Shown here one piece after another: positions 2,039 through 64,000 of a stretch of DNA of 64,000 nt. How positions within the stretch are numbered: position 1 is the stretch's first letter; each line of letters opens with the position of its first letter. The notes beneath the pieces are model-generated. The model saw only the letters and a list, made by a program, of their open reading frames with translations. It did no database searches and was not told where the DNA came from. The position numbers and the translations under genes were made by a program. Location of the stretch: NCBI RefSeq assembly GCF_056746865.1, contig NZ_CM163382.1; one strand, given 5' to 3'.

Positions 2039-2122
2039 AATCGATATTCCTTTTTGCAGATAAATGAAAACGCCAGCCCTGTTCAGGCTGGCGTCAGTGG
2101 AATGAAGTCTGGTGAGTAATAT

Positions 2123-2320
2123 TTACCGGTTCTGGTGCAGAAGCTGCAGATGACGAAGAGTACGGACATCCTCCCGGGCCCGTTCGATACAGGGCAACAG
2201 TGCTGCCGAATCCGTTTTATCCTCATCGTTGTCAAAGATAATTCCCGATTCGCAGTCGATATTGTCCTGCAGCCACACAATCAGAATATCCAGTGCTGTT
2301 TCCGTGGTTAATGATTTCAT
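2123..2320 (-). CDS. Small hypothetical protein, YeeW-like position
   Basis: 65-aa ORF between DUF4942 and the cbtA-associated ORF; overlapped by alternative frames, so coding status is uncertain. Confidence 0.3.
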   Translation of the reverse strand: MKSLTTETALDILIVWLQDNIDCESGIIFDNDEDKTDSAALLPCIERAREDVRTLRHLQLLHQNR

Positions 2321-2331
2321 GTTGTTCCTGG

Positions 2332-2820
2332 TTACCAGTCGAAAGTGGGCAGGTCAGGCAGGCATTCAGCGCTGGCATCCAGATGAATGAGACTGACGCC
2401 ATAACGCCGGATAAGAGTGACAACCAGACGGCGGAACGTTTTTGACAGTCCCAGGCGTTTAAGTCGCAGAACCGGGTATGACCACGCATCGGTACGTAAC
2501 AGATATCCGCTACCTGTAAAATGAATCCATTCTGATTCGCCGGTGTCATTCGTCTGATGTGACAGCGAGTACAACCAGGCATTGTCCGTTTCCGTGATAT
2601 GTGCGGTACTGCAGCGTATGCCGGTAAGGGCCGCAGATGGTGGCGTGCGCTCTGCTGATGCCCGGTCAGATTCATCAACAACACGAAGGGAGTAACCGTT
2701 ATCGCAGACCACGTTAATCAGTTCAGCGAGAGTAACACCATCGACGTCAACGACAATGCGCCCCATGTTCAGTGCCTGCACGTTAATGCTGTCGGCTTCC
2801 AGCGTCAGGGCCAGTTTCAT
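2332..2820 (-). CDS. Hypothetical protein translationally coupled to cbtA
   Basis: 162-aa ORF; its start overlaps the cbtA stop by 4 bp (2817-2820); no family recognised. Confidence 0.45.
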   Translation of the reverse strand: MKLALTLEADSINVQALNMGRIVVDVDGVTLAELINVVCDNGYSLRVVDESDRASAERTPPSAALTGIRCSTAHITETDNAWLYSLSHQTNDTGESEWIHFTGSGYLLRTDAWSYPVLRLKRLGLSKTFRRLVVTLIRRYGVSLIHLDASAECLPDLPTFDW

Positions 2821-3194
2821 TGTTTCGCCCCCGGATGTTTACCCAAGGTAATGTTATTTACCGTTCTGTAATTGTCGCGGGCCATCAGGCCGGTTGCCCG
2901 GCGGGCCCGGAGGATATCAATACTGTTTATTAACTGAGAACGGGTACAGGCGCTGAATCCCGGCTGGTCGGTACGTACCAGTGCGTATTTTTCAACGAGA
3001 AAGTTCACCGCATCGCACAGTGAAATGCCTGCCTCAATATGCTGCTCAATCACACGTTCATCAGCGAACGGTGTGTCATTCAGTGTGAGGCCGTAATGCT
3101 GGTCCAACAGTCGGGTGAGCAGTGTCTGCCAGATGGTGACGGGAGACGGGCAGCGCGATGCCTCCCGTACGTGTGTGTCAGGTAATGTTTTCAT
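2817..3194 (-). CDS. cbtA: Type IV toxin CbtA/YeeV family (cytoskeleton-binding toxin)
   Basis: Near-identity by eye to YeeV/CbtA from the internal Met (MKTLPD...HYGLTLNDTPFADERVIEQHIEAGISLCDAVNFLVEKYALVRTDQPGFSAC...); start placed at ATG 3192-3194 rather than the upstream in-frame ORF start. Confidence 0.85.
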   Translation of the reverse strand: MKTLPDTHVREASRCPSPVTIWQTLLTRLLDQHYGLTLNDTPFADERVIEQHIEAGISLCDAVNFLVEKYALVRTDQPGFSACTRSQLINSIDILRARRATGLMARDNYRTVNNITLGKHPGAKQ

Positions 3195-3240
3195 CTTAAG
3201 TTCTCTGTAACTGGTAGTGCTAAAGGTGAGATATTCGGGG

Positions 3241-3615
3241 TTATGAGGTGGTTGCGGGTGCCAGTGTCGGATAAACAGCCATATAAACGTAACCACAGCT
3301 GCCGAGGGTGTCGGCTTCGCAGGTCAGCCCTCTGGCATACAGCGTGACGGTATGCTGATGGCGGGGATTCAGTTCACCGCTGGTGAGCATGAGTTCCAGT
3401 TGTTTCATCAGCAGCGGAAAGGCCTGGTCCAGATGATACGCATCCGCGTCGCTAAACTGCCCCCTGATACCGGCGCGGTCGGCAAGGTAATGCAACTGAT
3501 TGCCCTCCTGCACCAGACGTGCCCCGAAACAGGGCGTCACGGTGCAGGGGAGCCCCCACCAGGGGCGGTCGTTGTTGTTGTCGGGATGCGTTGTCCCGGG
3601 GTGTGTGTCTGACAC
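3241..3615 (-). CDS. cbeA: Type IV antitoxin CbeA/YeeU family
   Basis: MSDTHPGTT...DRPWWGLPCTVTPCFGARLVQEGN..LHYLADRAGIRG.FSDADAYHLDQAFPLLMKQLELMLTSGELNPRHQHTVTLYA matches YeeU; immediately upstream of cbtA. Confidence 0.85.
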   Translation of the reverse strand: MSDTHPGTTHPDNNNDRPWWGLPCTVTPCFGARLVQEGNQLHYLADRAGIRGQFSDADAYHLDQAFPLLMKQLELMLTSGELNPRHQHTVTLYARGLTCEADTLGSCGYVYMAVYPTLAPATTS

Positions 3616-3694
3616 GATAAAATCCTCACAGAAAATCGGTTAAGAATGCTCCGATGGTGGCGATAATTCGGCTCATCAGAATGCCCTTTCTGAT

Positions 3695-3916
3695 TCAGTT
3701 CAGGGTAACGCTCATCAGACGGACATACGGACCAAAACTGTCCTTACGGCGTTCAGCAAACACGGCCAGCACACCGGGAATATCCTGCACTTCACGGCCG
3801 GTATACGTATCCGTGCTACCGTGCCAGCGGTATTTACCGGTACAGAACGGAAAAAGACGGGATGCAGGATGCTGTTGGTGAATACGCATGGCTTCACCAC
3901 GGGTGATGATTTTCAT
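3695..3916 (-). CDS. yeeT: YeeT-like DUF987 protein
   Basis: 73-aa ORF MKIITRGEAMRIHQQHP.SRLFPFCTGKYRWHGS...VRLMSVTLN, canonical CP4 synteny. Confidence 0.75.
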   Translation of the reverse strand: MKIITRGEAMRIHQQHPASRLFPFCTGKYRWHGSTDTYTGREVQDIPGVLAVFAERRKDSFGPYVRLMSVTLN

Positions 3917-3978
3917 AATGGGATACCTCTGAAGACAGAAGATAAAAGTGAAAACAGGTGTGATGTGGTTGTGACGGG

Positions 3979-4470
3979 TTAAAGCAGACCGTGTTCGGCA
4001 AAGGAGAATACCTGGTTGCCACCGACTATCAGATGGTCCGGCACCCGGATATCCACCAGGGCCAGCGCCTGTACCAGACGTTCAGTGATAAGCCGGTCTG
4101 CCTTACTGGGGGTGACTTCACCGGACGGGTGATTGTGCGCCAGCACCACGGCAGCGGCATTGTGGTACAGGGCACGTTTAATCACCTCCCGGGGATGGAC
4201 TTCTGTGCGGTTGATGGTGCCTGTGAAGAGGGTTTCACCCGCAATCAGCTGATTCTGGTTGTTCAGATACAGCACCCGGAACTCTTCCCGCTCCAGTCCT
4301 GCCATGTTCAGAATCAGCCATTCCCGTGCCGCATGCGTGGAGGTGAAGGCCACGCCGGGCTCATGAAGATGACGGTCCAGGGTTTTCAGGGCCCGCTGAA
4401 TGAGGCTGCGCTCGCCGGGCGTCATCGCTCCGGGCAGAAAGGAAAGCTGTTGCATTATGCTTCTCTCCAT
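3979..4470 (-). CDS. yeeS: RadC-like JAB-domain protein (YeeS/YfjY family)
   Basis: HNHPSGEVTPSKADRLITERL motif (JAMM-like HNHPSG); the start could instead be the internal ATG at 4453-4455. Confidence 0.75.
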   Translation of the reverse strand: MERSIMQQLSFLPGAMTPGERSLIQRALKTLDRHLHEPGVAFTSTHAAREWLILNMAGLEREEFRVLYLNNQNQLIAGETLFTGTINRTEVHPREVIKRALYHNAAAVVLAHNHPSGEVTPSKADRLITERLVQALALVDIRVPDHLIVGGNQVFSFAEHGLL

Positions 4471-16130: not shown

Positions 16131-16394
16131 TTCATGGAGTTTGTTTACCATTCTGTTTTTCTTAAAAGTGAGTGTCTGTGCGGTCACTAAACTCGGTAAT
16201 AAAGCAGTTCATTGCAGGATAAGAAGCGTTTGGTTGTGTCGTTTTACCGTAAGAACCGACCGCCGTATGTATCCATTAAGCCAGTATTGGTAACGTAGGT
16301 GCCCACCTTTTCAAACTGGTGGGCGCCTGTTATGGAGCAAAAACATTATCCGCAGAACCCCGCAGATCATTTTCAAATGAGTTAAACTTCAAAT

Positions 16395-16506
16395 GGTTAA
16401 ACTGGCTTTGCAACCAGGAGCCTCTGTTGCCCGTATTGCCCGGGAACACGATATCAATGATAACCTCCTGTTCAAATGGCTCAGACTCTGGCAGAACGTA
16501 AGGTAA
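16395..16506 (+). pseudogene. IS3-family transposase OrfA fragment
   Basis: Peptide KLALQPGASVARIAREHDINDNLLFKWLRLW is the conserved IS3-family OrfA HTH region. Confidence 0.45.
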
Positions 16507-18892: not shown

Positions 18893-20265
18893 GTCCCGGG
18901 GGGAGTCCCCATAAGCGCTAACTTAAGGGTTGTGGTATTACGCCTGATATGATTTAACGTGCCGATGAATTACTCTCACGATAACTGGTCAGCAATTCTG
19001 GCCCATATTGGTAAGCCCGAAGAACTGGATACTTCGGCACGTAATGCCGGGGCTCTAACCCGCCGCCGCGAAATTCGTGATGCTGCAACTCTGCTACGTC
19101 TGGGGCTGGCTTACGGCCCCGGGGGGATGTCATTACGTGAAGTCACTGCATGGGCTCAGCTCCATGACGTTGCAACATTATCTGACGTGGCTCTCCTGAA
19201 GCGGCTGCGGAATGCCGCCGACTGGTTTGGCATACTTGCCGCACAAACACTTGCTGTACGCGCCGCAGTTACGGGTTGTACAAGCGGAAAGAGATTGCGT
19301 CTTGTCGATGGAACAGCAATCAGTGCGCCCGGGGGCGGCAGCGCTGAATGGCGACTACATATGGGATATGATCCTCATACCTGTCAGTTCACTGATTTTG
19401 AGCTAACCGACAGCAGAGACGCTGAACGGCTGGACCGATTTGCGCAAACGGCAGACGAGATACGCATTGCTGACCGGGGATTCGGTTCGCGTCCCGAATG
19501 TATCCGCTCACTTGCTTTTGGAGAAGCTGATTATATCGTCCGGGTTCACTGGCGAGGATTGCGCTGGTTAACTGCAGAAGGAATGCGCTTTGACATGATG
19601 GGTTTTCTGCGCGGGCTGGATTGCGGTAAGAACGGTGAAACCACTGTAATGATAGGCAATTCAGGTAATAAAAAAGCCGGAGCTCCTTTTCCGGCACGTC
19701 TCATTGCCGTATCACTTCCTCCCGAAAAAGCATTAATCAGTAAAACCCGACTGCTCAGCGAGAATCGTCGAAAAGGACGAGTAGTTCAGGCGGAAACGCT
19801 GGAAGCAGCGGGCCATGTGCTATTGCTAACATCATTACCGGAAGATGAATATTCAGCAGAGCAAGTGGCTGATTGTTACCGTCTGCGATGGCAAATTGAA
19901 CTGGCTTTTAAGCGGCTCAAAAGTTTGCTGCACCTGGATGCTTTGCGTGCAAAGGAACCTGAACTCGCGAAAGCGTGGATATTTGCTAATCTACTCGCCG
20001 CATTTTTAATTGACGACATAATCCAGCCATCGCTGGATTTCCCCCCCAGAAGTGCCGGATCCGAAAAGAAGAACTAACTCGTTGTGGAGAATAACAAAAA
20101 TGGTCATCTGGAGCTTACAGGTGGCCATTCGTGGGACAGTATCCCTGACAGCCTACAAAACGCAATTGAAGAACGCGAGGCATCGTCTTAACGAGGCACC
20201 GAGGCGTCGCATTCTTCAGATGGTTCAACCCTTAAGTTAGCGCTTATGGGGGAGTCCCCCGGGAT
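18893..20265 (+). mobile_element. IS4-family insertion sequence with about 38-bp terminal inverted repeats
   Basis: IRL cccggggggagtccccataagcgctaacttaagggttg (18893-) and IRR caacccttaagttagcgcttatgggggagtcccccggg (-20265); transposase ORF 18959-20077 has the IS4 YREK signature (Y-RL-R-WQI-E-LAFKRL-K). Confidence 0.7.
18959..20077 (+). CDS. IS4-family DDE transposase
   Basis: 372-aa ORF, YREK motif, bounded by the element IRs. Confidence 0.7.
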   Translation: MPMNYSHDNWSAILAHIGKPEELDTSARNAGALTRRREIRDAATLLRLGLAYGPGGMSLREVTAWAQLHDVATLSDVALLKRLRNAADWFGILAAQTLAVRAAVTGCTSGKRLRLVDGTAISAPGGGSAEWRLHMGYDPHTCQFTDFELTDSRDAERLDRFAQTADEIRIADRGFGSRPECIRSLAFGEADYIVRVHWRGLRWLTAEGMRFDMMGFLRGLDCGKNGETTVMIGNSGNKKAGAPFPARLIAVSLPPEKALISKTRLLSENRRKGRVVQAETLEAAGHVLLLTSLPEDEYSAEQVADCYRLRWQIELAFKRLKSLLHLDALRAKEPELAKAWIFANLLAAFLIDDIIQPSLDFPPRSAGSEKKN

Positions 20266-21011: not shown

Positions 21012-22329
21012 TCAGAATGACCCTGTAAATAATTCTGTGTAACTGCCGCCGTATTAAAGGTGCTCGCTAAGGCGGTCACCGAACTCGATAATAAAACGGC
21101 TCATTGCCAGCCGCCAGTTCTGGATTGGCATACTCCATTTTTTGACGCCGACTGTATCGCCAGATAAATCACTTTTCGCACCGAGTCGTCCGTTGGGAAC
21201 ACCTTGCGCTTCTTTATCGCCTGCCGAATGACACTGTTCAGCGATTCGATGGCATTCGTCGTGTAGATGGCCTTGCGGATATCCGGTGGGTAACCGAAGA
21301 AGGTGTTGAGATTTTCCCAGTGTGTGCGCCAGCTCTTGCTGATTTGCGGGTATTTTTCATCCCAGACGCCTGCAAACTTATCCAACGCCATCAACGCCGT
21401 TTCCTCTGTCGGGGCCTGATATACCGCTTTCAGCCCGCTGGTGACGGCTTTGTAATCCTTCCACGACACGAATTTCAGGCTGTTGCGCACCATATGGATG
21501 ATGCAGAGCTGAATATGCGTCTGCGGGTACACGCTATTTATCGCTTCCGGGAAGCCTTTCAGGCCGTCCACGAAGGCGATAAGGATATCGTTCAGGCCGC
21601 GATTTTTCAGTTCCGTCAGTACATTCAGCCAGAACTTTGCACCTTCATTTTCGGCCAGCCACATATCCAGCAGCTCTTTCTGACCGTCGGTATTGATGCC
21701 CAGCGCGAGGAACACCGCTTTGTTAATGACACTCCCGCTGTGACGAACCTTAACCACAATACAGTCAAGATAAACAATGGGATACAGTGCATCCAACGGT
21801 CGGTTTTGCCATTCAGAGACCTGTTCTTTAACCGCATCGGTCACTTTGGATATCAGCGTGGGCGAGACATCGGCGTCGTACATTTCTTTGAAGGCTGAGG
21901 TAATTTCGCGGGTAGTCATCCCTCTGGCATACAGCGCCAGGATCTGGTTGTCCATGCCGGTAATGCGGGTCTGATTTTTCTTCACCAGTTGTGGTTCGAA
22001 GGTATTTTCACGGTCACGCGGCGTGTTAAGTTCGATCTCGCCATCATCGCACAATACCGTTTTTGACGAGTAGCCATTACGGGTATTAGAGCCTGATTTA
22101 GGAGCATTTTTCTCATGACCTAGATGGTCAGTCAGTTCTGCATTGAGCGCCGTTTCGACGGTAAGCTTTGTCAACATGCGTGAAAACTGGTTGAGGTCGG
22201 CTTCGGTTTTAAGGCCTTTGGCCAGTTCAGCCGCAAGGACTTTAAGTTTCTTTTCGTCCATCGTTTGCCTGTCTCCGTTGTTGGAGTGAACATATCAAAA
22301 ACAGGCAATTACACAATTTTAATTACAGT
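21012..22329 (-). mobile_element. IS256-family insertion sequence with imperfect terminal IRs and 9-bp target duplication (ttcagaatg)
   Basis: IRs ACCCTGTAAATAATTCTGTGTAACTGCC (left) and reverse complement of GGCAATTACACAATTTTAATTACAGTCTC (right); flanks recreate a sequence found uninterrupted at 46537-46690. Confidence 0.65.
21047..22261 (-). pseudogene. IS256-family (mutator-type) transposase, frameshifted near its 3' end
   Basis: Protein is IS256-like throughout; the expected C-terminus (SKKWSMPIQNWRLAMSRFIIEFGDRL...) is readable in another frame after a poly-A tract at about 21140. Confidence 0.65.
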
Positions 22330-40239: not shown

Positions 40240-41287
40240 ATGAAATATACACCGGTTGGCGTTGATATCGCAAAGTATCTGATTCAGGTTCACTTCATCA
40301 ATGAGTACACGGGCGAAGTGGTGGACAAGCAGCTACGTAGCAAGGATTTTCTGACGTTCTTCAGCAACCGGGAACCCTGTCTGATAGGTATGGAGGCTTG
40401 TGGAGGCTCCCAACATTGGGCGAGGGAACTGGAAAAAACTGGGACACAAAGTTCGGCTGTTGCAAGCTCGCTTCGTTAAAGCATTCGTCATGGGCAACAA
40501 AAATGATGTGATGGATGCGCGTGCTATCTGGATGGCGGTACAGCAGCCCAGTAAAGATATCGCTGTTAAAACGGAAGAGAAGCAGTCAGTTCTGGTCCTG
40601 CACCGTTCGCGCAGACAACTGGTGAAGTTCAGAACCTCGCATATTAATACCCTTGGCACGCTCCTCGAGTTTGGTGAAATCCTCCACAAAGATTGGACAG
40701 CGATGGACAGAAAGCTACCGACAGCCCTAGAGCGAATGAAGACGAACCTGCCGCCGTATCTCATCACTGTGCTTGAATACCAGTACAACAGACTGAGTGA
40801 GCTGGGCATGCAGATAGATGGCCTTGATAAACAGATTAACAGCGTGGCACGGCAGAGCGAAAACTGTAAGCGCCTAATGGAAATCCCCGGTGTGGGGCCG
40901 TTAATCGCTACGGCGGTGGTCGCCACCATGGGCGAGGCCTCAGCATTTAAATCCGGACGTGAGTTTGACGCTTATGTCTGTCTGGTGCCGAAGCAGACGG
41001 GGTCCGCTGGGAAGGTTCGCATGCTGGGGATAAGCAAACGTGGGGATACCTACCACCGGACATTATTTATCCATGGGGCAAGGGCGGCAGCATTGCTTAC
41101 CAAAGAACCCGGCCCATGGATCACGGAGCTGAAAAAACGGCAGCCGACAGGTGTAATGCCGATCAGTTTAGGAGCAGTTGACCGATCCAGGGTCTGTTTA
41201 AGAATCCTGAAACGCTCACTCGTTTCCGGATTTTTGTGCACAGAAAAACCCCAGCTAGGCTGGGGGCCGGAAAGCTTTCAGCTTTGA
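40240..41287 (+). pseudogene. IS110-family transposase, frameshifted
   Basis: N-terminal MKYTPVGVDIAKY... in ORF 40141-40479 continues in ORF 40400-41287 after a frame change; the C-terminal part is IS110-like. Confidence 0.6.
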
Positions 41288-50809: not shown

Positions 50810-52897
50810 TCAGAACTGATAGTTCAGCGACATCCAGTAATTTCTCTCAGGTATCACATAACCCGTTGTCGATGCCCCCGTCTGGAAGTAATCACCCGCA
50901 TAAAGCGTACCACTGCCGGCACGATACAGACTTACGTCACTGTAATCCTTGTTAAGCACATTATTCACCGCTGCATTCAGCATCAGTGCATCCGTCACTT
51001 TCCACGACATGCCCGCATCCAGTACCGTCCAGGCTTTCAGATATTCACCTTTCTCATCATACACTTTCTTCTGTACAGCTGAGAGTGACGAATAATTCTG
51101 GGTGAAACGTGGCGTTTTCCCGCGGTAACGGGCACCCAGCCATGATGTCACCTCTTCAGTAATCTGCCAGTTCAGTTTCGCATTCACCATATGCTCAGGG
51201 GTGTAACTCAGTGGTGCACCTTTATTATCCCCATCCCGTTGTTCACTCTGCGTCCAGGTATAATTCAGAGACAGAGTCACATCCTCTGACAACAGAGGCA
51301 GTGTGCCGGCAAATTCCACGCCCTGAGTCCTAGCCTTTCCGCTGTTTGTGTAGCTGCGGGTATTATCATCAATGGAATAAGATACGATCTTGTTGGAGAA
51401 TTCTGTCATAAAGCCCGTGATATTGGCGTTCAGACCGGCATGATTATCGTAATACACGCCCGCTTCATAACTGACACTCTCCTCCGGCTTCAGGTCCGGG
51501 TTACCGAGAAGATTCGTACGCCCCTGACCGGACACACCGCTGATCCCCTTATGTAACTGCCCCATGCTGGGCGCCTTATATCCCGTGGTCACCCCACCTT
51601 TCAGCGTCCACGCATCAGTCACATCCCAGACCATATATGCCCGGGGACTGAAGTGTCCTCCGAACACCTCATAGCGTTCATAGCGGCTACCCGCAGTCAG
51701 TGCAAATGCATCCGTGATATACCACTCATCCTCAACAAATGCCGACCAGCTTTTCTGACGGAAGGTTTCACCAGTACTGGCGAGAACAACCCCGTCTTTC
51801 ATGGAGGAGTTCTGATACTCACCACCGACGGTAACCTTGTGTGATTCCCCCAGAGGTGCAAACAGTAATGAGCTCAGGATAAGATTCGACTCCTTAAGCT
51901 CCCTCGGCTGGCCGGCAAGCCCCCATTTATCACGCTGCAGTACGCTACGTACAAGCTGACGGCCTTTATTTTCCGTCTCATTCCAGTTCAGAGATGACTT
52001 CCAGGCTCCGAAGGTGAATGTATGATCATAGCCTGCTGAAATTTTATTACGCTCATAGCGCAGGGTGCGATCATAACCGCCCGTCAGACTGCCCAGCTGG
52101 CCATCTCGGTTATCATAACGCTGCCGGGCGATATCCATATCAATCCAGAGTACATCCTTGTCCGTCGCTTTCCAGTCAAGACGACCACCTGCATTATAAT
52201 TCTGTGATTCCGTGGGATAAGGGATACGCGTAGCTGAGGTGTCGCTCAGTGATGTGACCGATGAGCCCTGACGCTGCTGTGTGCTGCCACGTACCTGAAG
52301 GCTGAGTGAATCATCCACAAGGGGACCGCTGCTCCAGAAATTAAACTGGCTGCTGTTCCCCCATTTGTTACTTTCCTGCAGGTTCAGCCCGGCATTAACC
52401 GAAGAGCGCCATTTGTCTGCATTCTTTTTGGTGATGATATTCACCACGCCCCCCATGGCATCAGAGCCGTACAGAGTGGACATGGGGCCCCTGATAATCT
52501 CAATACGTTCGATGGCGGCCAGAGGTGGCATAAAACCCGTATTCATGGCAGCATAACCGTTTGGGGTTACGTCACTGCTCCCGCCCTGACGGACACCATC
52601 GATCAGTATCAGCGTATAACTGGCAGGCATTCCGCGGATGCTGATTTCGAGCCCACCTGTTTTACCCGTACCGCTTTCAACATCCACCCCCTCTACGGAT
52701 CTCAGTGCCTCCCCCAGATCATGATACTGGCTGGATCGCAAATCCTCCTGGCTGATCACTGAAACACTCGCAGCTGCACTGGTTAATTTTTTTTCATAGC
52801 CAGACGCCGTGACTACCATCACATCTTCCGCAGCCATACTGCTGACTGAAAACCCGAGACAAGGGATGGCTACTGAAGCCAGAGTGGTTACTCGCAT
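50810..52897 (-). CDS. iha: TonB-dependent outer-membrane receptor/adhesin, Iha-like (IrgA homolog adhesin)
   Basis: 695-aa ORF, signal peptide, plug and barrel features, C-terminal ...WMSLNYQF; close resemblance by memory to Iha; RBS ggagag. Confidence 0.75.
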   Translation of the reverse strand: MRVTTLASVAIPCLGFSVSSMAAEDVMVVTASGYEKKLTSAAASVSVISQEDLRSSQYHDLGEALRSVEGVDVESGTGKTGGLEISIRGMPASYTLILIDGVRQGGSSDVTPNGYAAMNTGFMPPLAAIERIEIIRGPMSTLYGSDAMGGVVNIITKKNADKWRSSVNAGLNLQESNKWGNSSQFNFWSSGPLVDDSLSLQVRGSTQQRQGSSVTSLSDTSATRIPYPTESQNYNAGGRLDWKATDKDVLWIDMDIARQRYDNRDGQLGSLTGGYDRTLRYERNKISAGYDHTFTFGAWKSSLNWNETENKGRQLVRSVLQRDKWGLAGQPRELKESNLILSSLLFAPLGESHKVTVGGEYQNSSMKDGVVLASTGETFRQKSWSAFVEDEWYITDAFALTAGSRYERYEVFGGHFSPRAYMVWDVTDAWTLKGGVTTGYKAPSMGQLHKGISGVSGQGRTNLLGNPDLKPEESVSYEAGVYYDNHAGLNANITGFMTEFSNKIVSYSIDDNTRSYTNSGKARTQGVEFAGTLPLLSEDVTLSLNYTWTQSEQRDGDNKGAPLSYTPEHMVNAKLNWQITEEVTSWLGARYRGKTPRFTQNYSSLSAVQKKVYDEKGEYLKAWTVLDAGMSWKVTDALMLNAAVNNVLNKDYSDVSLYRAGSGTLYAGDYFQTGASTTGYVIPERNYWMSLNYQF

Positions 52898-52946
52898 ATC
52901 TTCTCTCCGATTATATTAATCAGAGAGAAGATAAACAAACGCAAGA

Positions 52947-52963
52947 GATAATGAGAATGATTT
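52947..52963 (-). promoter_or_regulatory. Fur-box-like sequence upstream of iha
   Basis: GATAATGAGAATGATTT about 50 bp upstream of the iha start. Confidence 0.55.
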
Positions 52964-53221
52964 GCTTTTGGTTTTTACATAAAAAAGCAAAAAATTACAA
53001 AATATTACATAAGGTTCTACTATACCCCGAATTTCAGTTGAGGACGTTCTTTTCTCTAGGGGAAAGTAACGGATAGCAATCGTTGACGATCCATATCGGA
53101 TTTTTGCACTATGGGTATTTATCCAATCTTTATCAGTTTCTTGTCCTTGGATATGTTAATCATACACTATCGGATATTTCGTACATCAGACAGGTGAATA
53201 TAATTAATAATGAGGAGTTTT

Positions 53222-53494
53222 ATGGACAATAGAACAATTACTCTGCAGGAATTACTCGAGTACATGTCAATGCTTCGAGACGACATGAATGCTCTCACGG
53301 TTGCATTTTCATATCTGGCTTCATCGCTTCCTAAGGAACAGATGATACAAATACTGGCATTCATTCATTTTGAATCAAATAATTCCAGATGGTCTTCAGA
53401 ACAGCAGAAATCTTTCAAATGGCTAGCATCACTACTGGAGGGCTGTTATACAGTTCACACAAACATTTTTGATATACCATCAAAGAACCACTAG
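53222..53494 (+). CDS. Hypothetical protein, 90 aa, AT-rich
   Basis: RBS aggag 5 nt upstream of ATG 53222; no family recognised. Confidence 0.35.
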   Translation: MDNRTITLQELLEYMSMLRDDMNALTVAFSYLASSLPKEQMIQILAFIHFESNNSRWSSEQQKSFKWLASLLEGCYTVHTNIFDIPSKNH

Positions 53495-53817
53495 TACATT
53501 ATGATACATTCCCTCTGAAATATATTTCTACTTTGAGCGCCTCTGACTTTATGAGGCGCTTTGTCCAGCAAACCAAACATACTCGCTGGAAACAGAGTAA
53601 AGTATTATTATCCCCGATACATCTATATTTTACAACAGCGCATCCATATATTAATTAACGATGCAGTTAAGTTCCCCATTCTACCCAATTTACTGTTTTT
53701 GTTGTTTGAAAGAAGACTCTCATTAAGTGAGAGCCATCTGTAAGTATCCCGCATAATCGCTCCATTCATATTTAGAGATCATCCGGAATAATCAATCTGA
53801 TAACGAAGAAAATCGCT

Positions 53818-53943
53818 ATGCGTAAAGCCCGTATTACTGAGTATTAGATCATCGCTGTAATTAAATCGGTTGAAACCGGACGAACAATTAAAGATGTTTG
53901 TCGGGAAGCCGGTATTTCTGAAGCCACTTACTACATCTATTGA
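53818..53943 (+). pseudogene. IS3-family OrfA fragment with in-frame TAG
   Basis: MRKARITEY-stop-IIAVIKSVETGRTIKDVCREAGISEATYYIY is an HTH OrfA-like peptide. Confidence 0.45.
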
Positions 53944-54158
53944 CTACCTCAGTTTTGCAAGCACTGATTCTGGTTTTGGATTGTTGCTTACATCTATCCG
54001 GCATCAGGAAAACCTGTGCCCAAATAGGGAATCCACACACAATCGCCTCTACAACTGGACGACCTCTGAGGCCAGTACAAAAATCAGGTTCCGATTGTGC
54101 AGGTGCAACCCGTCACCATTTCTCAGTACGCTGCAACTTTTGCTGAAAGAGATTAACT

Positions 54159-54386
54159 TCACACTGCCTGATATTCTGTATCATTTATCAGCATCGACCA
54201 GATTATTCTCGCGTATTTGTTAGCAATCTCCACAGTAGTTTTATTAAATTCGCGACTCTCCTTTAACTGCTTAACCCACTGATTTAGGTATACATCATTA
54301 TTATTCGTAGCAACTCTAACGACAGCACGGACGCCATGAATAAAAAGTGTTTGCAGATGCTTGTCGCCTTTTTTCGTTATATTCAT
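54159..54386 (-). pseudogene. IS110-family transposase C-terminal fragment
   Basis: GDKHLQTLFIHGVRAVV...ANKYARIIWSML matches the IS110-family C-terminal region. Confidence 0.45.
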
Positions 54387-54627
54387 GAGAACTTACCTGC
54401 AGCAACTCTAGTGCAGGCATGGAAGCAGACCAAGCCATGCAGCACAGTGACGATCATTCTTAAATTCAGTGCCTTTGCCAATAATAACAGCAACAACGCT
54501 CGTGACAATTTCAGGACCAATGCCTTTAGCTTTTGCAATACGCTGACAGCATTCAGATTGCCTGGACAGGTCTCTATTTATTTATCAAAAAAGTTTATAC
54601 TACGACCGAGATCGTTAAAGAGATCAT

Positions 54628-55786
54628 CTAAATAGCTGCGCCTAATACCACTACACTTTTGCCAGCCCATGTTTGCCTCCGGGGAACGGGCTGATGGTTT
54701 CCATAAAATGGCGAATTTTTTTCAACAGTTGCCACATTGAGCGGCACTGATGATTACGCGTTATTGTGTCGTGAAGTGCCTGCCATAGCCGTTCAACATG
54801 ATTCACCCATGGCAAGTAAACCGGCTGATAAATGACCCTGAACTTCGGGTTCTCCTTCAACCAGCGCTGTGTTTCCCGGCTTTTGTGGATAATGTAGTTG
54901 TCCACGATCAGTGTGATGGTTTTCACCCGAAGGTATGTCGCTTTAAGCCGCTTCAGCAGGCTGATGAACAGCGCCGAACTTTTGCTGTTGCCGCCCACAT
55001 AGCTGACTTTACCTGTCCCGCTGTGCAGCGCTCCGGCCAGATCATATTTTTCATTCTGTCCCGGCGTGACCACCCGTTTTTGCTGTCCGCGCAGTTGCCA
55101 GTCCGCACCGATTTTGGGATTAAGATGGATATCCACTTCATCTTCATAAAAGACCGGATGCTCTGTGCTGCATTCGTCCAGTGCTTTATGGATTGCTGCC
55201 ATCTTTTCATCTTTATGCGGGTCACGGATACGCAGAGTTGGCGCAGCCCTTCGCCACACAATCCCCGCAGACGGCAACCAGCGGCGAACGGTTCCGGCAT
55301 TTAACTGGCAATCGGTTATCTCATTGATTTTTATTGCCAGCAGTTCTGTACTCCAGCGTGAACGCTGGTAGCCAAAGTCGCCGGGAGAATGTTTTACCAG
55401 CTCACGTAACAGTGTGCAGATATGCTCAAACGACCAGAGACGGGCTCGCCCGGCAGGTAATGATTTCAGTCCCTCAACACCCGACTGCGTGAACCAGTTA
55501 ATCCAACATCCAACAGAGGAACGGGCGCAGCAGAGCGTTCTGGCAACGTCGCTGACACGGTCGCCCCGGTGCAGCATCAGCATGGCAGTCAGTCTGCGGG
55601 CATAATTTTTATCGTGTGTTTTATGGATGGCTTTCTGCATCAGGCGTCGTTCGTCACGGGAAATTGGTGCTATGATCGGCATTGCTCAGTCCGGTTGGTG
55701 ATTTGTTTTGATTTGGCGATTGATCAGATCGCACAATCCAGGCTGAGCTCCCTCAAAGTGATCTACTATTCCGCGCAGCTATTTAG
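54628..55786 (-). mobile_element. IS630-family insertion sequence (about 1.16 kb) with terminal inverted repeats
   Basis: Ends CTAAATAGCTGCGC (54628) and GCGCAGCTATTTAG (55786); intact 343-aa transposase inside. Confidence 0.8.
54651..55682 (-). CDS. IS630-family transposase
   Basis: 343-aa ORF with IS630-like N-terminal HTH and DDE region. Confidence 0.8.
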   Translation of the reverse strand: MPIIAPISRDERRLMQKAIHKTHDKNYARRLTAMLMLHRGDRVSDVARTLCCARSSVGCWINWFTQSGVEGLKSLPAGRARLWSFEHICTLLRELVKHSPGDFGYQRSRWSTELLAIKINEITDCQLNAGTVRRWLPSAGIVWRRAAPTLRIRDPHKDEKMAAIHKALDECSTEHPVFYEDEVDIHLNPKIGADWQLRGQQKRVVTPGQNEKYDLAGALHSGTGKVSYVGGNSKSSALFISLLKRLKATYLRVKTITLIVDNYIIHKSRETQRWLKENPKFRVIYQPVYLPWVNHVERLWQALHDTITRNHQCRSMWQLLKKIRHFMETISPFPGGKHGLAKV

Positions 55787-56027
55787 TTCCGCTATCGTTC
55801 TGCACATACAAGCTCTTAACCCGTTTATGCATCCTCAAGGCTCAGCAGAATAGCTGTCAGCGCCAATGATATAAGACAGTAATGGGGATGCGGACGATTT
55901 CCTGGACTCTCAGGAGATGAAACATGTTTACTGAAGAAGAAAAAATCCGCGCCATTGAGCTTTATTTCAAATATGTGACCCGTCCTGAATAGCGTTGACA
56001 CGTTCCTACTTAAATCCGGAGAACGTA

Positions 56028-57017
56028 ATGATGACTTAGCTCAAACGCACCCAACGTGATTATCCTCTATCCTTTAAAATAGCTGTTGTTGAGCAGGTTG
56101 AAAAAGGCGAGATGACTTATAAACAGGCCCAGCAGCGGTATGGCATTCAGGGGCGCTCCACCGTTCTTGTCTGGTTACGTAAATATCCTGGACTTCCTGA
56201 GCTGGTGAAGAGGAAACTGCCTGTGACTCAGACAACTATCCCGCTCACACCCGAGCAAAGAATCAGGGAACTTGAAACGTAGCTTGAGCTGGCGAACCAG
56301 AAAGCTACGTTTTTTGAGTCAGTTATCAATGTCCTGAAAAATGATTACGGGGTGAGTATCGTAAAAAGCGGCCCGGCAAGTCCTCGCGCAAAGTCCGGTC
56401 CCCAAAATAACTGTGACGCGTGCAGTCTGTTCCTGGGACACAGCAGACAGGCATGGTATCAGGACAATGCAAGGCGCAGAAAACGGCAGGAACATCATGC
56501 TCAGGTTCTTGATTTTGTTGCCCGTGTCAGATGTCGTCAGCCCCGAATCGGTGCGCGTAAGCTGCACTATCTGCTGAACACTCAGGCCGATAAAAGGCTG
56601 AATATCGGGCGAGACCGCCTGTTTAACCTGCCCGATGAATACCGACTCCTGGTGCCAGTAAAACGGTCATATCACAAAACTACCAACAGCCATCATCGCT
56701 TCTACCGACATCCAAACCTGCTTAAACCAGGCCCTGAACAGGTTACTGCTCTTGAACCAGAACAGGTCCGGGTCGCCGATATTACTTACCTTCCACTGCG
56801 CAATAGTTCGGCCTATCTGAGTCTGGTCACCGATGCCTGCTCCAGAAAAATTATGGGCTACCATGTTGGGGAAAACCTGCAGACAGAAAATGTGGTAAAA
56901 GCGTTCAGACAGGTGCTGAAGCTGAGAAAAACGACGAGTCCCCTGGTGCATCATTCTGGCAGGGGCTGCAATACTGTTCAGCGCTCTATCAGTCAGTTCA
57001 TGAAAGAAATGAAATAA
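56028..57017 (+). pseudogene. IS3-family transposase remnant with in-frame TAG stops and a 3' frameshift
   Basis: TAG at 56037 and 56280 inside an otherwise continuous frame; OrfB-like core (DITYLPLRNSSAYLSLVTDACSRKIMGYHVG...LVHHSGRG); C-terminus (AIYNHERPHLALKYKTPYDVHQAFY) in another frame to about 57245. Confidence 0.55.
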
Positions 57018-57485
57018 CCTGTTCAATGACTGATGGTTATGACTGCTACCAGCATTGGCTGAGTGAATAAATGGTACCCTGAAAAATGAGTTTTTACTCT
57101 CGCGTCCTGCAGACCTGGCTCAGGCCCGGGAAATGGTCCAAGAGTCCGTGGCAATTTATAACCATGAGCGGCCACACCTGGCTCTGAAATACAAAACGCC
57201 CTATGACGTTCATCAGGCGTTTTACAGACAGAAAAGTGTCAACTTATACCAAGACTAGTCAATGGTAAGAAGCTGGCTCCCGTCGTACGCGAACTGGGCT
57301 ACCCTTCGAAAAGAAATCTGCGGCGTTGGATCCGTTCATAGGAATCAGGTGGCGGAGCAAAAGAATCCATTCGCCATAAGCCCCGTTACACAGATGAGCA
57401 AAAACAAGTTGCCGTTGAACATTATCTTAACCACGGCTGCTGCCTAGCGTTTACCAGTAGAACTCTGGGTTATCCCTGTACCGAT

Positions 57486-57878
57486 GTGCTCGCTCGCTGG
57501 GTTAATGAACGTTACCCCGGCAGACGACGTATATTTACCAGTAAGACCAGTCCGGTTGCGCCCTTTGAACCAGAAGTCAAACGTCAGGCTGTCATGGCAT
57601 TCTGTACACGACAAATATCAGCCAGTGAAATCTCTAGGCGTATTGGTGTCAGTCGTGCGGTATTGTATAAATGGAAAGATGAAATTATCGGCAACAGTGC
57701 TTACCAGACTATGCGTAAACATAACGAACCTTCCCTAGAGGCAGAACGCGATGCGTTGCGGGAGGAAGTCGCCCGACTGAATCAGGAAATACGCCGCCGG
57801 CAGATGGAACTGGATATTCTGAAAAAAGCGGAGAAAATCATAAAAAATCTATGGTCACCCCCGTTTTTGCTACACTGA
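57486..57878 (+). pseudogene. IS3-family OrfA-like fragment
   Basis: HTH (SASEISRRIGVSRAVLYKWKDE) followed by leucine-zipper-like REEVARLNQEIRRRQMELDILKKAEKI. Confidence 0.45.
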
Positions 57879-58122
57879 TTTTTGATTAATGGTGGGCTTG
57901 CTTAAATCTATCCGGCGTCTCTGTGGACAAGGAGACCCGCGCCTCGATGAGTTCCGCACCTGATAATCCTAAAAAGACCCTCGGCTTCAGTGAGCCATTT
58001 TTTCTGTCAGGTTTTTAATCAGGTCTATTTGCCGTTCATGTCATCAATAATCAGTCTTCGCAAAACCAGACAGGTAACTTGTATCGTAAGCGTGCAGCAA
58101 GAACCGTATTGACGGGGATGTG

Positions 58123-59661
58123 TTATTCAGTCGGCAGTGCTACGCGCCAGGGGAGCAGTTCGCCGACCCGGTTTATCGGCCAGTCGGCTATGACGTCAAG
58201 GACATAGCGGAGGTAGCTTTCTGGCTCCACTCCGTTCAGTTTGCACGTCCCGATCAGGCTGTACAGCAGCGCTCCCCGCTCTCCTCCATGATCCGAACCG
58301 AAGAACAGGTAGTTTTTGCGGCCCAGACTGACCATCCGCAACGCATTTTCAGCGATGTTATTGTCCGCCTCAGCCCAGCCATCATCTGCATAGTACGTCA
58401 GCGCCGGCCACTGGTTCAGGGCGTATGCGAACGCTTTCGCCAGTTCTGAGTGTCGCGACAGGGTTTTCATCTTTTCACGCAGCCAGCTTTCCAGGGATTT
58501 CAGCAGCGGTTTCGTTTTCAACTGACGTTCGGCAAGGCGCTGCTCCGCCGTCATTCCCCTTATCTCTGCCTCGATGGCGTACAGTTCGCCGATCCGTTTC
58601 AGCGCTTCCTCCGTCAGGGCTGACGGGGTGCGAACGTGCACATCGTGGATTTTACGGCGGGCGTGAGCCCAACAGGCGGCTTCCGTTATCCGGCCATCCC
58701 GGTACAGCTCGTTGAACCCGGCGTATGCATCCGCCTGCAGTACACCACTGAACCCCGCAAGATGGGTCTGCGGATGGATGCCTTTTCTGTCCGGGCTGTA
58801 AGCGAACCACACCGCCGGCGCCAGCGTTGACCCGGCGTTACGGTCGTCACGAACGTAGGTCCATAACCGCCCGGTCTTCGTTTTCTTATTGCCTGGCAAC
58901 AGCACCGGGACAGGCGTGTCATCAGCATGGAGCTTACCGTCAGTCAGCACATAGTCCTGAAGCGCTTCTTCCAGCGGTGACAGTAGCCGGCAGCATGCAT
59001 CCACCCAGCCCGACAGCAGTGAACGACTCAGCTCCACGCCCTGGCGGCCGTACATTTCAGACTGGCGGTACAGCGGGGTGTGCTCTGCATACTTTGAGAT
59101 CAGCACGCGGGCCAGCAGCCCCGGTCCTGCGATACCCCGCTCGATGGGCCGTGAAGGCGCGGGGGCCTGCACGATGGCATCGCACTGAGTACAGGCATGC
59201 TTTTCACGTACAGTCCGGATAACCCGGAAGGCGCTGCGCATCAGCTCCAGCTGTTCGGCGGCATCCTCACCCAGATAGCTCAGCGAGCCTCCACATTCCG
59301 GGCAGCATGACGCTGCCGGCAGCAGCCGTTTTTCATCGCGGGGGAGTGATTCGGGGAACGGTTTGCGGGTGCGGGTTTGACGCAGCGGGCGCTGCACGGC
59401 CGGGTCGTCAACCCGACCGGTAAGGGTATCACTTTCTTTCTGAAGTGCCTTCAGGTCAGCTTCCATCTGTGCGATACGACGGGAGACTTTTTCCGAGCGG
59501 CTGCCGAAGTTCATCCGGCGCAGCTTATCCAGCTGTGCCTGCAGATGGTCTATTTCGCGTTCACGCTCGTTCAGCTTTTCCTGCAGGGCACGGTTCAGCG
59601 CCTCCTGTTCGGCAAGGAGACGTTTCAGTGCATTGATATCGTCAGGAAGTGAGCTGCTCAT
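58123..59661 (-). CDS. tnpC: IS66-family transposase TnpC
   Basis: 512-aa ORF with N-terminal coiled coil, zinc-finger CPECGG...CTQC and DDE region. Confidence 0.85.
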
Positions 59662-59709
59662 ACCGGGTATATTACCAGGCTCATTCAGCGTCGACCAGGA
59701 TAAAGAGGC

Positions 59710-60057
59710 TTACAACATAGTCAGGGACGTAAGCAGTCTTTTAGGCTGCCGCCAGTCGATACCTTCCAGCAGCATCGCCAGCTGTGCCGGTGTGAGGAAC
59801 ACTTTGCCATCCCGGGCTGACGGCCAGGCGAAGCGGCCGCGCTCCAGCCGTTTGGTCAGCAGACACAGTCCATCGCCGGTAGACCAGAGGAGCTTTACCT
59901 GACTGCCATTACGCCCACGGAAGATAAAAACGTGACCTGACATCGGATCGTCTTTCAGCGTCGTCTGCACCTTTGCCGCCAGGCCGTTGAAGCCGTTTCT
60001 CATATCGGTGATGCCAGCGACCAGCCAGATCTTTGTCCCTGATGGTAATGGGATCAA
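59710..60057 (-). CDS. tnpB: IS66-family accessory protein TnpB
   Basis: 115-aa ORF in canonical position. Confidence 0.8.
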   Translation of the reverse strand: MIPLPSGTKIWLVAGITDMRNGFNGLAAKVQTTLKDDPMSGHVFIFRGRNGSQVKLLWSTGDGLCLLTKRLERGRFAWPSARDGKVFLTPAQLAMLLEGIDWRQPKRLLTSLTML

Positions 60058-60458
60058 CGTTTGAGCTCCCGTATCAGCAGGTTCAGGATATTTTCACTGA
60101 TGGCACCATTCAGACGGAGTGATCCGTGCCGGAACGTCACTTCACAGCTGATATTGAGTGATTCAGGTGTCGCAGTAGCTACAGGTTGTGACCGGGGGGA
60201 GGTTGTAGGGACAACATCTTCGGCATCAAGTGTTATCGGGAGCAGCTCAGGCACGTTGTTTTCTGTTGTTGAAGGAGGACGTAGTTTTCCTTCGCGCCAG
60301 TACTGGCGCCACTTGAACAGCAAATTATCGTTGATCCCATGCTCACGAGCGAGTTGCGCTACGGAGATCTCTGGTCGATGCGAGAGTTCAACCATTTTGA
60401 TTTTGAACTCAACGGGATAATTAGGGCTTTTTTTACGCACTGCGGTTAATGATTTCAT
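60054..60458 (-). CDS. tnpA: IS66-family OrfA (TnpA, HTH)
   Basis: 134-aa ORF; 4-bp overlap with tnpB. Confidence 0.8.
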   Translation of the reverse strand: MKSLTAVRKKSPNYPVEFKIKMVELSHRPEISVAQLAREHGINDNLLFKWRQYWREGKLRPPSTTENNVPELLPITLDAEDVVPTTSPRSQPVATATPESLNISCEVTFRHGSLRLNGAISENILNLLIRELKR

Positions 60459-60569
60459 GGATAGCGTCCACCATATTTGGTGTCCACTATTCTCTCAGGA
60501 ATTTCAGGATCTGCCAGACGGTGCTGAGACGACGCTTACCTTGTATCTTATTTTTTAAAATAAGCTAAT

Positions 60570-61556
60570 TGAGTTTTGTCAGTATCTATATCAGGCCTGA
60601 TATTCTTTGTGCAGAGCAGTGATTGCCCAGGCTATTCGGGCCAGTTTATTTGCCAGAGCGCAGGCGACAATATTTGAATGCTTATTGTCGAGTTGCTTTT
60701 GAACCCATTCAGCAACTCTGCCCTATTGATGCTCCAGCCGCATCATGAACGAGCGGGCGTACAGAACAAGTAACCGACTCGTTTGCTGATCCCCAGCAGC
60801 ATTGATTTACCACCGGTACTGTATTGTCGGGGAACAAGTCCTGTGGATGCTGCAAAATCCCTACTGCACGAAAATTGTTTACCATCACCAAGCTGGGATG
60901 ATAGCAGGCTGGCCGTCATCGGCCCAACACCGGGGATTGTCATGATTCGTTGCACAGTAGCGTCAGCTTTGATTGACTGGTTTAACTCTGATTCCAGTTC
61001 TGTTATTTGCTCAATACGATAAAGATAGTGAGCATGTAATTTCATCAGCAAGCGACTCAGATATTCAGGTATTTCGTGTTCAGCTAACGCCAGAGATAAC
61101 CATTTTATTGCGGCATCCCCTGTCGGCAGTCTGATTCCAAATTCCAGCAAGAAACCGTGGATCTGGTTGTTTTTTTTCACCTTATCTCTGATGAGCGATT
61201 CTCTGACCCGATGTAATGCCCTCATTGCCTGCTGGGTTTCTGTTCTGGGCTGGACAAAACGCATTGATGGTCGTGAAGCCGCTTTGCATATGGCTTCTGC
61301 ATCAATAAAATCATTCTTATTACCTTTGACAAACGGACGCACGAATTACGGAGAGATAAGTTTTTCTTCATGACCGATGTCGCTGATACGCCGGGCCATA
61401 AAATGCGTACCAGCGCAGGCTTCCATAACAACTACTGAGGATGGACATGTTGCCAGAAACTGCATCAGCTTCGTACGCGTAAACTTTTTACGCAAAAGCG
61501 CATTGCCAGATTTATCTTGACAATGAATATGGAAAGAATGTTTACCGAGATCGATA
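60570..61556 (-). pseudogene. IS110-family transposase with nonsense codons (TAA at codon 2 and near 61347) and a C-terminal frameshift; IS66 inserted at its end
   Basis: N-terminal ...NVALIGIDLGKHSFHIHCQDKSGN; central VKGNKNDFIDAEAICKAASRPSMRFV; C-terminal VACALANKLARIAWAITAL in another frame. Confidence 0.55.
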
Positions 61557-61627
61557 CCAATAAGCGCAACGTTTTACATGATGGTGCCCTCTAAAATAAC
61601 CCACCCTGTCAGCGTACCGCTCACAGG

Positions 61628-62532
61628 GTGGGGGTGACCATCTCATTAGACCCGGGCATCAGTATCAGTCACCTAAACAACAGAGAAAAAACAAATATCG
61701 CTGATGCCCTGAGACAAACATATCCCCTGACAGAATTACTGCATGTTCTGGGGCTTGCCCGTAGCAGTTATTTTTATCACCGGGCTGCACTGAAAGCCGG
61801 TGATAAATACGCCACGATACGTACGATGCTGACAGATATAGTTAACAGTAATTACCAGTGTTATGGCTATCGTCGCCTGCATGCGATGCTCAGGCATGAG
61901 GGGGTCAGCTATCAGAAAAGGTTGTAAGCAGACTTATGGTGAAGGAACAGCTTGTCGTCAGCCGTAACCGTCGTCGCCGCTACAGCTCATATTGCGGAGA
62001 AATCGGACCGGATCCGGATAACCTTATCGCCAGAGATTTTAAGGAGGACCAACCTAATCAGAAATGGCTGACAGATATAACGGAGTTCCAGCTTCCTGCA
62101 GGAAAAGTCTGGCTGTCACAGGTGGTGGACTGCTTCGATGGAAAAGTTGTGAGCTGGTCTCTCAGTACACGCCCCGACGCAGAACTGGTTAACGCTATGC
62201 TGGATAACGCTGTCAAAACGTTAAATGCTGGCGAACGACCGATGATACACAGTGGCAGAGGTGGGCATTATCGCTGGCCAGGCTGGCTGGAAAGAGTTAA
62301 TGCCGCAGGTCTTATTCACTCAATGTCCCGTAAGGATGATGCCGCATGCGAAGGCTTTTTCGGCAGACTGAAAACGGAAATGTATTATGGGCGTAAATGG
62401 TCGGGCATCATGCCGGAAAAGTTCATGCAGCATGTGGATGCTTACATCAGAGGGTATAACGAGCGGCGTATAAAATTATCGCTGGGTGAAGACAGCCCTG
62501 AAATGTACCGCCAACAATGTAGGCTGGAATAA
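61628..62532 (+). pseudogene. IS3-family OrfB (integrase core) in two frames
   Basis: ORFs 61628-61927 and 61936-62532 with DDE-region motifs (WLTDITEF, HSGRGGHY, MYRQQCRLE). Confidence 0.55.
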
Positions 62533-63049
62533 TAAAGAAGTCCAGGAAATCGTCCGCATCCCCAAAACGGCCAATAATCTTGGCGTTGACATAGCACGAC
62601 GATCTCTTGAAACTACCGCGCCGATAGTTATTCCCCAATCAAGCAACAGTCCCCTGATTTGACAAACGGTCACATTAACAATATGCTGCCTTGCCCGGTG
62701 CAAAGCGTAGATATCCTGTTGTTCCGAGCTTTTTGGAGGCATGAACAGCATTGTCGGTTACATCAGAAGCACTGCGATGGCCTGTGCATCATTACCGTCA
62801 TTTTTTGCCCACAGACAAAGGGAGTTACATACTGTGGGTTGAGGACCTTTACGTTATGCCCCAGTTTTTTAAATTCACTCTGCCAGTAAAATTCCCATGT
62901 GGATGCCCTACATCAATTAGGAAGGCCGGAATATTCGCCACTATTTGGAGTAATTCTTTTCGGCCAATACGTTTTGAATAAACCGGATTACCGACCTAAT
63001 TTAACCCGCAGAGCTGAAAGATATTTTTATCCAGATCAATACCTAGGAA

Positions 63050-63830
63050 TACGATATTCATTGTGATTCCCCTGCTGAGTGAGTGCATTTCGTACAGTTA
63101 ACCGCAAAAGGAGGGGGTACTCCATTCCATGAACTGGAAGCCCAGATACGATGCATAGAGTCACCTGATATTAAAAAGAACGAGGATCTTGAGGACGAGA
63201 ACCGACGTCCAAAACAGATGCTTGCCGACCTTAGCCTAGAGAACCGGCATTGAAAGACATTATCGAAAAAAGCTTTAAAACCAGCCTGTAAGCGTGAGCT
63301 TGTTACTCATCAGATAACGACATTTGGACTCAGTGTCCATCAGGCCTGCCGGAGTCTGAACCAGAGCAGAACGGTTTCCCATTACCGTCCGGATACCACG
63401 TGGTACGACCCCGTTATTGTGGTGGTGCAGGCAGTGGACGAGCGATATCCTCGATACGGTTTTTCAAAACTTTTTCAGGTTCTGAGGCAGCAGGTTCGCG
63501 GCAAATCGCAGTTATCCGGTCATGCTGCGCATAGATAATGGTTCGGAATTTATCTCTCTAACGCTGGCTGAATGGGCTGATATACACGCAGTAAAACGGG
63601 AGTTTATCCAGCCGGGTAAGCTGACGTAGAACGCTTTTATTGGGCGTTTTAACAGGACACACCGTACAGAAATACTCGATTTTTATCTGTTCAGAACGCT
63701 GAATGAAGTTCTAGAAATTACGGAGAAATGGTTATCAGAATATAGCTATGAACGCACACATGAATCACTGAACAATAAGACGCTGGAAGAATATCGACGA
63801 CACCATTATTTGACCAAGATATAAAAATGC
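63050..63830 (+). pseudogene. IS3-family transposase debris
   Basis: Fragments PKQMLADLSLENRH and LNEVLEITEKWLSEYSYERTHESLNNKTLEEYRR in multiple frames. Confidence 0.45.
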
Positions 63831-64000
63831 ATGGAATTAAAACGGGGCATATTTATATATGAATAACACAACTATATCGCTAAGGTAAAGGTGTATCCAA
63901 ACGGAGAATACAGCACTAACAGCATATATTCATCCAAATTAATAAAATATGACCGAGAACATAGAATATTAAACATTTTTAAATTATGCTTTTCTCGCTA

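Follow-up and report, generated by a model that had tools for sequence, protein, structure and literature searches.

The 64-kb stretch of E. coli DNA that was analysed (hereafter the window) is a virulence island that carries iucABCD-iutA, sitABCD, iha and a gene for a YadA-like adhesin, and that ends near amiC. Close to amiC, on the margin of the island, the Hfq-binding small RNA isrN was found as a full-length Rfam match (RF01396; 63277-63419, minus strand; 138 bits against a gathering score of 44). The iha-amiC end of the island is also the locus of a 2454-bp IS66-family element, which was delimited by direct reading and by script at window positions 58086-60539 on the minus strand. Table 1 lists the element, its parts and the two older elements in which it lies. 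A sequence-only reading of the same DNA had given a span of 58078-60547, and this agrees with the element plus the duplicated 8-mers on both of its sides.

Table 1. Features of the IS66-family element and of the elements that surround it in the window.
Feature	Position	Strand	Basis
IS3-family element, orfA part	57486-57842	+	Pfam HTH_Tnp_1; ORF (57486-57878) runs into the end of the IS110-type element
ISSfl8-like element, distal 243 bp of 3' non-coding region and end	57843-58085	-	contiguous alignment across the insertion point
Left copy of 8-bp target-site duplication, CTTGTATC	58078-58085	.	direct reading
ISEc22, complete	58086-60539	-	no difference over 2454 bp (100% identity) from many copies that PGAP annotates as ISEc22
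Terminal inverted repeat, tnpC-proximal, GTAAGCGTGCAGCAAGAACCGT	58086-58107	.	8/8 at tip, 15/22 ungapped against the other end
tnpC, DDE transposase, 512 aa	58123-59661	-	Pfam DDE_Tnp_IS66; coordinates match WP_000099202.1
tnpB, IS66 accessory protein, 115 aa	59710-60057	-	Pfam TnpB_IS66; identical to WP_000612626.1
tnpA, IS66 accessory helix-turn-helix protein, 134 aa	60054-60458	-	Pfam HTH_Tnp_1; identical to WP_000839181.1
Terminal inverted repeat, tnpA-proximal, ...ACGGTGCTGAGACGACGCTTAC	60518-60539	.	end comparison
Right copy of 8-bp target-site duplication, CTTGTATC	60540-60547	.	direct reading
ISSfl8-like element, remainder (43 bp of non-coding DNA at 60548-60590, transposase pseudogene ~60591-61579, 5' end with GGGGGTGACCA)	60548-61649	-	
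IS3-family element, continuation (rest of orfA/orfB), decayed	61650-62532	+	ORFs 61628-61927 and 61936-62532

All three minus-strand ORFs of the element are free of internal stops, and they follow one another on one strand in the order tnpA-tnpB-tnpC, the three-gene layout in the description of the IS66 family (PMC6778807). The tnpB gene begins with TTG, and its start shares 4 bp with the tnpA stop; a spacer of 48 bp separates tnpB from tnpC. TnpC matched the Pfam profile DDE_Tnp_IS66 (PF03050) over positions 1-283 of 284 (E 5e-107) as well as the further IS66 TnpC profiles zf-IS66, LZ_Tnp_IS66 and DDE_Tnp_IS66_C (PF13005, PF13007 and PF13817), and it scored 468 bits with the NCBIfam profile transpos_IS66 (NF033517; cut-off 180). 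TnpB is an Orf2-type protein of the family (TnpB_IS66, PF05717, 2-100 of 101, E 1.6e-38), and TnpA reached 82.7 bits with the NCBIfam profile IS66_ISRel24_TnpA, for which the cut-off is 74. With the profiles spanned approximately from end to end, and with DNA equal to that of copies annotated as non-pseudogenes, the earlier assignment to the IS66 family with three intact genes held. A promoter and terminator scan of positions 57800-60800 yielded no signal above the shuffled expectation.

The left junction of the element reads ...CAGGTAA CTTGTATC and then GTAAGCGTGCAGC..., with the boundary at 58085/58086. The right junction reads ...GACGACGCTTAC and then CTTGTATC TTATTTT..., with the boundary at 60539/60540. 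Between these boundaries the first bases are GTAAGCGT and the last bases are ACGCTTAC, and the two ends form an imperfect inverted repeat in which all eight positions agree at the tips (GTAAGCGT) and 15 of 22 agree in an ungapped comparison. Imperfect terminal inverted repeats that start with GTAAGCG are a trait of the IS66 family, and the ends of the window element are of this type. The 8-mer CTTGTATC flanks the element exactly on both sides and occurs nowhere else in the 64-kb window (script). The GTAAGCG termini and the perfect 8-bp duplication described by the sequence-only reading could thus both be read directly. A target duplication of 8 bp has been reported for IS66 (PMC6778807), and ISEc22 is known to insert with an 8-bp direct repeat (PMC4048246).

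The chance of an exact 8-bp match at positions set by the ends of the element is approximately 4^-8, or 1.5e-5. A weightier reason to regard the duplication as genuine is that other genomes contain the reconstructed empty site, that is, the two flanks joined with the element removed and one copy of CTTGTATC kept. Strain GF43 carries this 8-mer once at the empty site, and so does the intact relative of the host element on plasmid pSTEC299_1. In addition, six other copies of the element with 100% identity were compared. Their targets are unrelated: genes for a hemagglutinin-repeat protein, a ProQ/FinO protein and a peptidoglycan endopeptidase, the phage tail gene gpJ, trbC on an F-type plasmid, and a site adjoining a C40 peptidase gene. 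Each of the six is flanked by a perfect 8-bp duplication, and all six duplications are distinct, so the boundaries of the element are fixed independently of the window. In these copies the coordinates of the non-pseudogene CDSs annotated by NCBI coincide exactly with the tnpA, tnpB and tnpC ORFs of the window.

On the strength of sequence identity and length, the element at 58086-60539 is the already catalogued ISEc22 of the IS66 family, and nothing in the element itself is new. The name was adopted because NCBI annotates identical copies as 'IS66-like element ISEc22 family transposase' with tnpA and tnpB, and because the published length of ISEc22, an IS66-family element of 2454 bp (PMC5001619, Table 2), matches that of the window element, which has 100% nucleotide identity to the copies labelled by PGAP. 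A megablast search of 5,426 complete E. coli genomes returned many copies that are identical over all 2454 bases, 1,071 records that match at 99% or more, and a near-full-length relative in 2,191 of the genomes. Matches to ISEc22 were found on chromosomes and plasmids, in up to 29 places per genome. Most records in the same search (3,552) have 80-90% identity to the window element, and these are probably relatives such as ISEc8. A plasmid collection likewise contained identical copies in both E. coli and Salmonella, along with relatives in Klebsiella, Enterobacter and Citrobacter.

The site of insertion was resolved with the help of two intact comparators, ISSfl8 in O157:H7, which splits a DUF4942 gene, and a 94%-identical copy on plasmid pSTEC299_1. 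The reconstructed empty site aligns to both of them without a break across the insertion point, from 57843/57845 to 61648/61649, with 94.4% identity to the pSTEC299_1 copy and 83.5% to the O157:H7 ISSfl8, and this unbroken alignment places ISEc22 inside an ISSfl8-like element. A remnant ORF of 199 aa (60743-61342) carries the Pfam domains Transposase_20 (PF02371) and DEDD_Tnp_IS110 (PF01548), as in DEDD transposases of the IS110 family, and the closest named relative of this IS110-family pseudogene is ISSfl8, at approximately 81% identity. In tblastn searches with the intact relatives, amino acids 1-334 were covered in two frames, and the pseudogene differs from an intact relative by a 16-bp deletion and a change of frame near amino acids 264-267. 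Since PGAP calls the host transposase gene 'frameshifted; internal stop' also in the genomes with the empty site, the transposase was dead before ISEc22 arrived. The sequence-only reading had put the insertion at the end of an IS110-family pseudogene. It does lie within that element, but past the stop codon: ISEc22 sits 44 bp downstream of the stop and 243 bp from the end of the host element, in the 3' non-coding region.

The host element has subterminal inverted repeats near its ends, TGGTCACCCCC (within 57843-58085) and GGGGGTGACCA, and approximately 286 bp of non-coding DNA after the stop codon compared with approximately 70 bp ahead of the start. This layout, with repeats set in from the ends and the long non-coding region behind the transposase gene, is that of IS1111-type elements, in which the non-coding region encodes a seekRNA that is needed for transposition (PMC11187229). 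In the intact pSTEC299_1 relative the non-coding region (959-1241 of that locus) folds better than 200 of 200 shuffles (z = -3.16), which is consistent with a putative guide RNA of the seekRNA type; an Rfam search of the IS110-type non-coding region gave no family match. It is this region that ISEc22 splits into the parts 57843-58085 and 60548-60590.

The ISSfl8-like element itself lies within an IS3-family element, whose continuation PGAP describes as 'IS3 family transposase, frameshifted, missing N-terminus'. Judging from this nesting, the order of insertion is the IS3-family element, then the ISSfl8-like element and then ISEc22, and the three-level nest provides a clear relative timing of events.

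To date the last of these insertions, the empty site was compared with the occupied one. At least 28 complete E. coli chromosomes contain the 839-bp empty site without a single difference. Over 9,539 bp (window positions 52000-64000 minus the IS), blastn against strain GF43 gave one mismatch and no gaps, and an 88-mer that spans the empty junction has an exact match in the same strain. The occupied left junction, queried as 160 bp at a coverage of at least 80%, was present in 0 of the 5,426 complete E. coli genomes; it can be described by 40-mers, for example CAGACAGGTAACTTGTATCGTAAGCGTGCAGCAAGAACCG. Given an empty site in relatives, near-identical flanks and no occupied junction, the insertion postdates the split from those relatives. 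As far as these genome comparisons reach, it is very recent and specific to the strain or lineage, and they suggest that ISEc22 was recently active in the source strain. ISEc22 also appears to be the latest event in the window, because it alone is missing from every comparison genome. Both the recent transposition and its place as the most recent mobile-element event had been proposed from the sequence alone, and these data support both proposals.

Strain B771 is the sole record that covers at least 80% of window positions 52000-64000, and it was considered as a possible second carrier of the insertion. This candidate was rejected, as the IS66-family element of B771 is ISEc8, which adjoins iha at another site. 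ISEc8 in B771 (1739-4051 of that locus) is an independent insertion into the same island, and IS66-family elements have therefore struck this region more than once.

Taken together, we are highly confident that the locus holds a complete ISEc22 that entered by recent transposition, with an 8-bp duplication, into a dead ISSfl8-like element nested in a decayed IS3-family element. Other accounts of the same arrangement can be weighed against this one. The decayed IS fragments around ISEc22 would suit an old insertion, with the present copy an immobile relic that merely looks intact. An old copy, however, would have to be reconciled with zero differences over 2454 bp from a widespread copy and with a perfect duplication, as well as with flanks that show a single mismatch in 9,539 bp against a genome with the empty site and a junction that none of the 5,426 genomes shares, and we consider such an age extremely unlikely. 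Nor do we give much credence to the arrival of ISEc22 with a segment of the island, by homologous recombination or horizontal transfer instead of transposition in this lineage. The island is a mosaic whose arrangement varies between strains, and recombination between islands is frequent in E. coli, so the idea has some basis. Yet no donor with an occupied site exists among the complete genomes searched, the flanks are near-identical to those of relatives with an empty site, and the original event would still be a transposition of ISEc22 with an 8-bp duplication; on balance this route is very unlikely.

Multi-copy ISs classically give rise to assembly errors, and ISEc22, with its up to 29 places per genome, could in principle have been put at the wrong locus. 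A misplaced repeat would not come with an 8-mer duplicated exactly on both sides when the empty site has that 8-mer only once, and both junctions are clean to the base, which makes an artefact extremely unlikely. Recent transposition of ISEc22 into the ISSfl8-like element is thus the reading that we carry forward.

Under that reading, ISEc22 entered by transposition with duplication of the 8-bp target CTTGTATC, and the target lay in the 3' non-coding region of the older ISSfl8-like element of the IS110/IS1111 type, whose transposase gene was a pseudogene by then. The 512-aa TnpC is expected to bind the terminal inverted repeats of GTAAGCG type and to cut the target with a stagger of 8 bp, which would account for the 8-bp duplication. 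TnpC is the DDE transposase in the IS66 family (PMC6778807). By analogy with IS679, the helix-turn-helix protein TnpA and TnpB, which are encoded by overlapping genes, may be required as accessory proteins. The need for TnpA and TnpB in IS679 was reportedly described by Han et al. in 2001. The ISEc22 copy in the window is very probably still able to transpose, because its sequence does not differ by a single base from that of copies inserted at many other sites. For activity of ISEc22 in culture, the only published sign that was found is a single transposition read in K. pneumoniae, a weak signal (PMC5001619, Table 2). No consequence of the insertion for the host cell is expected, since the target element was already dead.

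A further possibility is that the landing was non-random and that ISEc22 prefers other mobile elements, in this case the guide-RNA-coding tail of an IS1111-type element. ISEc22 has also been reported inside IS3000 (PMC4048246). If such a preference were true, it would speak for competition between insertion sequences, as opposed to a neutral landing in dispensable DNA. Our comparison makes this improbable to a high degree: the seven duplicated 8-mers examined share no motif, and most of the other copies lie in ordinary genes.

The other IS elements of the window were surveyed as well. No second IS66-family copy or fragment was detected in the window by blastn and tblastn, which returned only a weak helix-turn-helix similarity at 16384-16494. 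The description of ISEc22 as the only IS in the window with all three genes intact is therefore correct, but trivially so, as it is the sole IS66-family element there, and it is not the sole IS that looks intact. The phrase 'an otherwise decayed IS nest' also needs qualification: decayed fragments are indeed present, but an IS630-family ORF in the same nest is full-length, and the local nest is thus not wholly decayed. This ORF (54651-55682, minus strand, 343 aa) covers positions 1-298 of 299 of its NCBIfam profile and counts as intact in the annotation of relatives; inverted-repeat-like ends, CTAAATAGCTGCGC, lie at 54628 and 55786.

A copy of IS421 (IS4 family, IS186-like) lies at ~18910-20248 and contains a full-length transposase ORF of 372 aa (18959-20077) and perfect terminal repeats (CATAAGCGCTAACTTAAGGGTT); the target is palindromic, and the copy is flanked there by a GC-rich repeat of 10 bp (GGGGAGTCCC). 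IS421 occupies the same site in only 4-6 of the 5,426 genomes, and strain PK8261 has IS5 in its place between the same two genes. By its sequence, this copy is apparently another intact, fairly recent IS. An IS256-family transposase ORF (21101-22261, minus strand, 386 aa) spans positions 1-336 of 338 of its NCBIfam profile, and the annotation of relatives gives a frameshift in the corresponding gene. Three more IS110-family transposase fragments, with 32-40% protein identity to the ISSfl8-like element, were found at 40255-41287 (plus strand), 54165-54554 (minus strand) and 62605-62888 (minus strand), which shows that different IS110-type elements have colonised the island repeatedly.

ISEc22 is abundant in the Enterobacteriaceae and already catalogued, and the significance of the present copy is mainly one of bookkeeping. 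Its occupied junction is a strain-specific marker that could serve in typing or in tracing the lineage. If several copies of ISEc22 exist, they could make the aerobactin/sit/iha virulence island more prone to rearrangement or deletion.

In comparison with known systems, the window element has the same length, sequence, three proteins and length of target duplication (8 bp) as ISEc22, the ISfinder name that is used by NCBI PGAP. Relative to known ISEc22, only the insertion site is new, as none of the 5,426 complete genomes has the occupied junction. The E. coli elements of the ISEc8/IS679 type share the tnpA-tnpB-tnpC layout, the 4-bp overlap of tnpA and tnpB and a 1539-bp tnpC with it; ISEc8 is nevertheless a different IS, whose tnpA measures 381 bp in contrast to 405 bp in the window element. 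The host element resembles ISSfl8 and the IS1111 type in that it, too, has subterminal inverted repeats and a long downstream non-coding region, whereas, unlike intact ISSfl8, the copy in the window is dead (a 16-bp deletion with a frameshift, as well as stops) and has since been divided by ISEc22.
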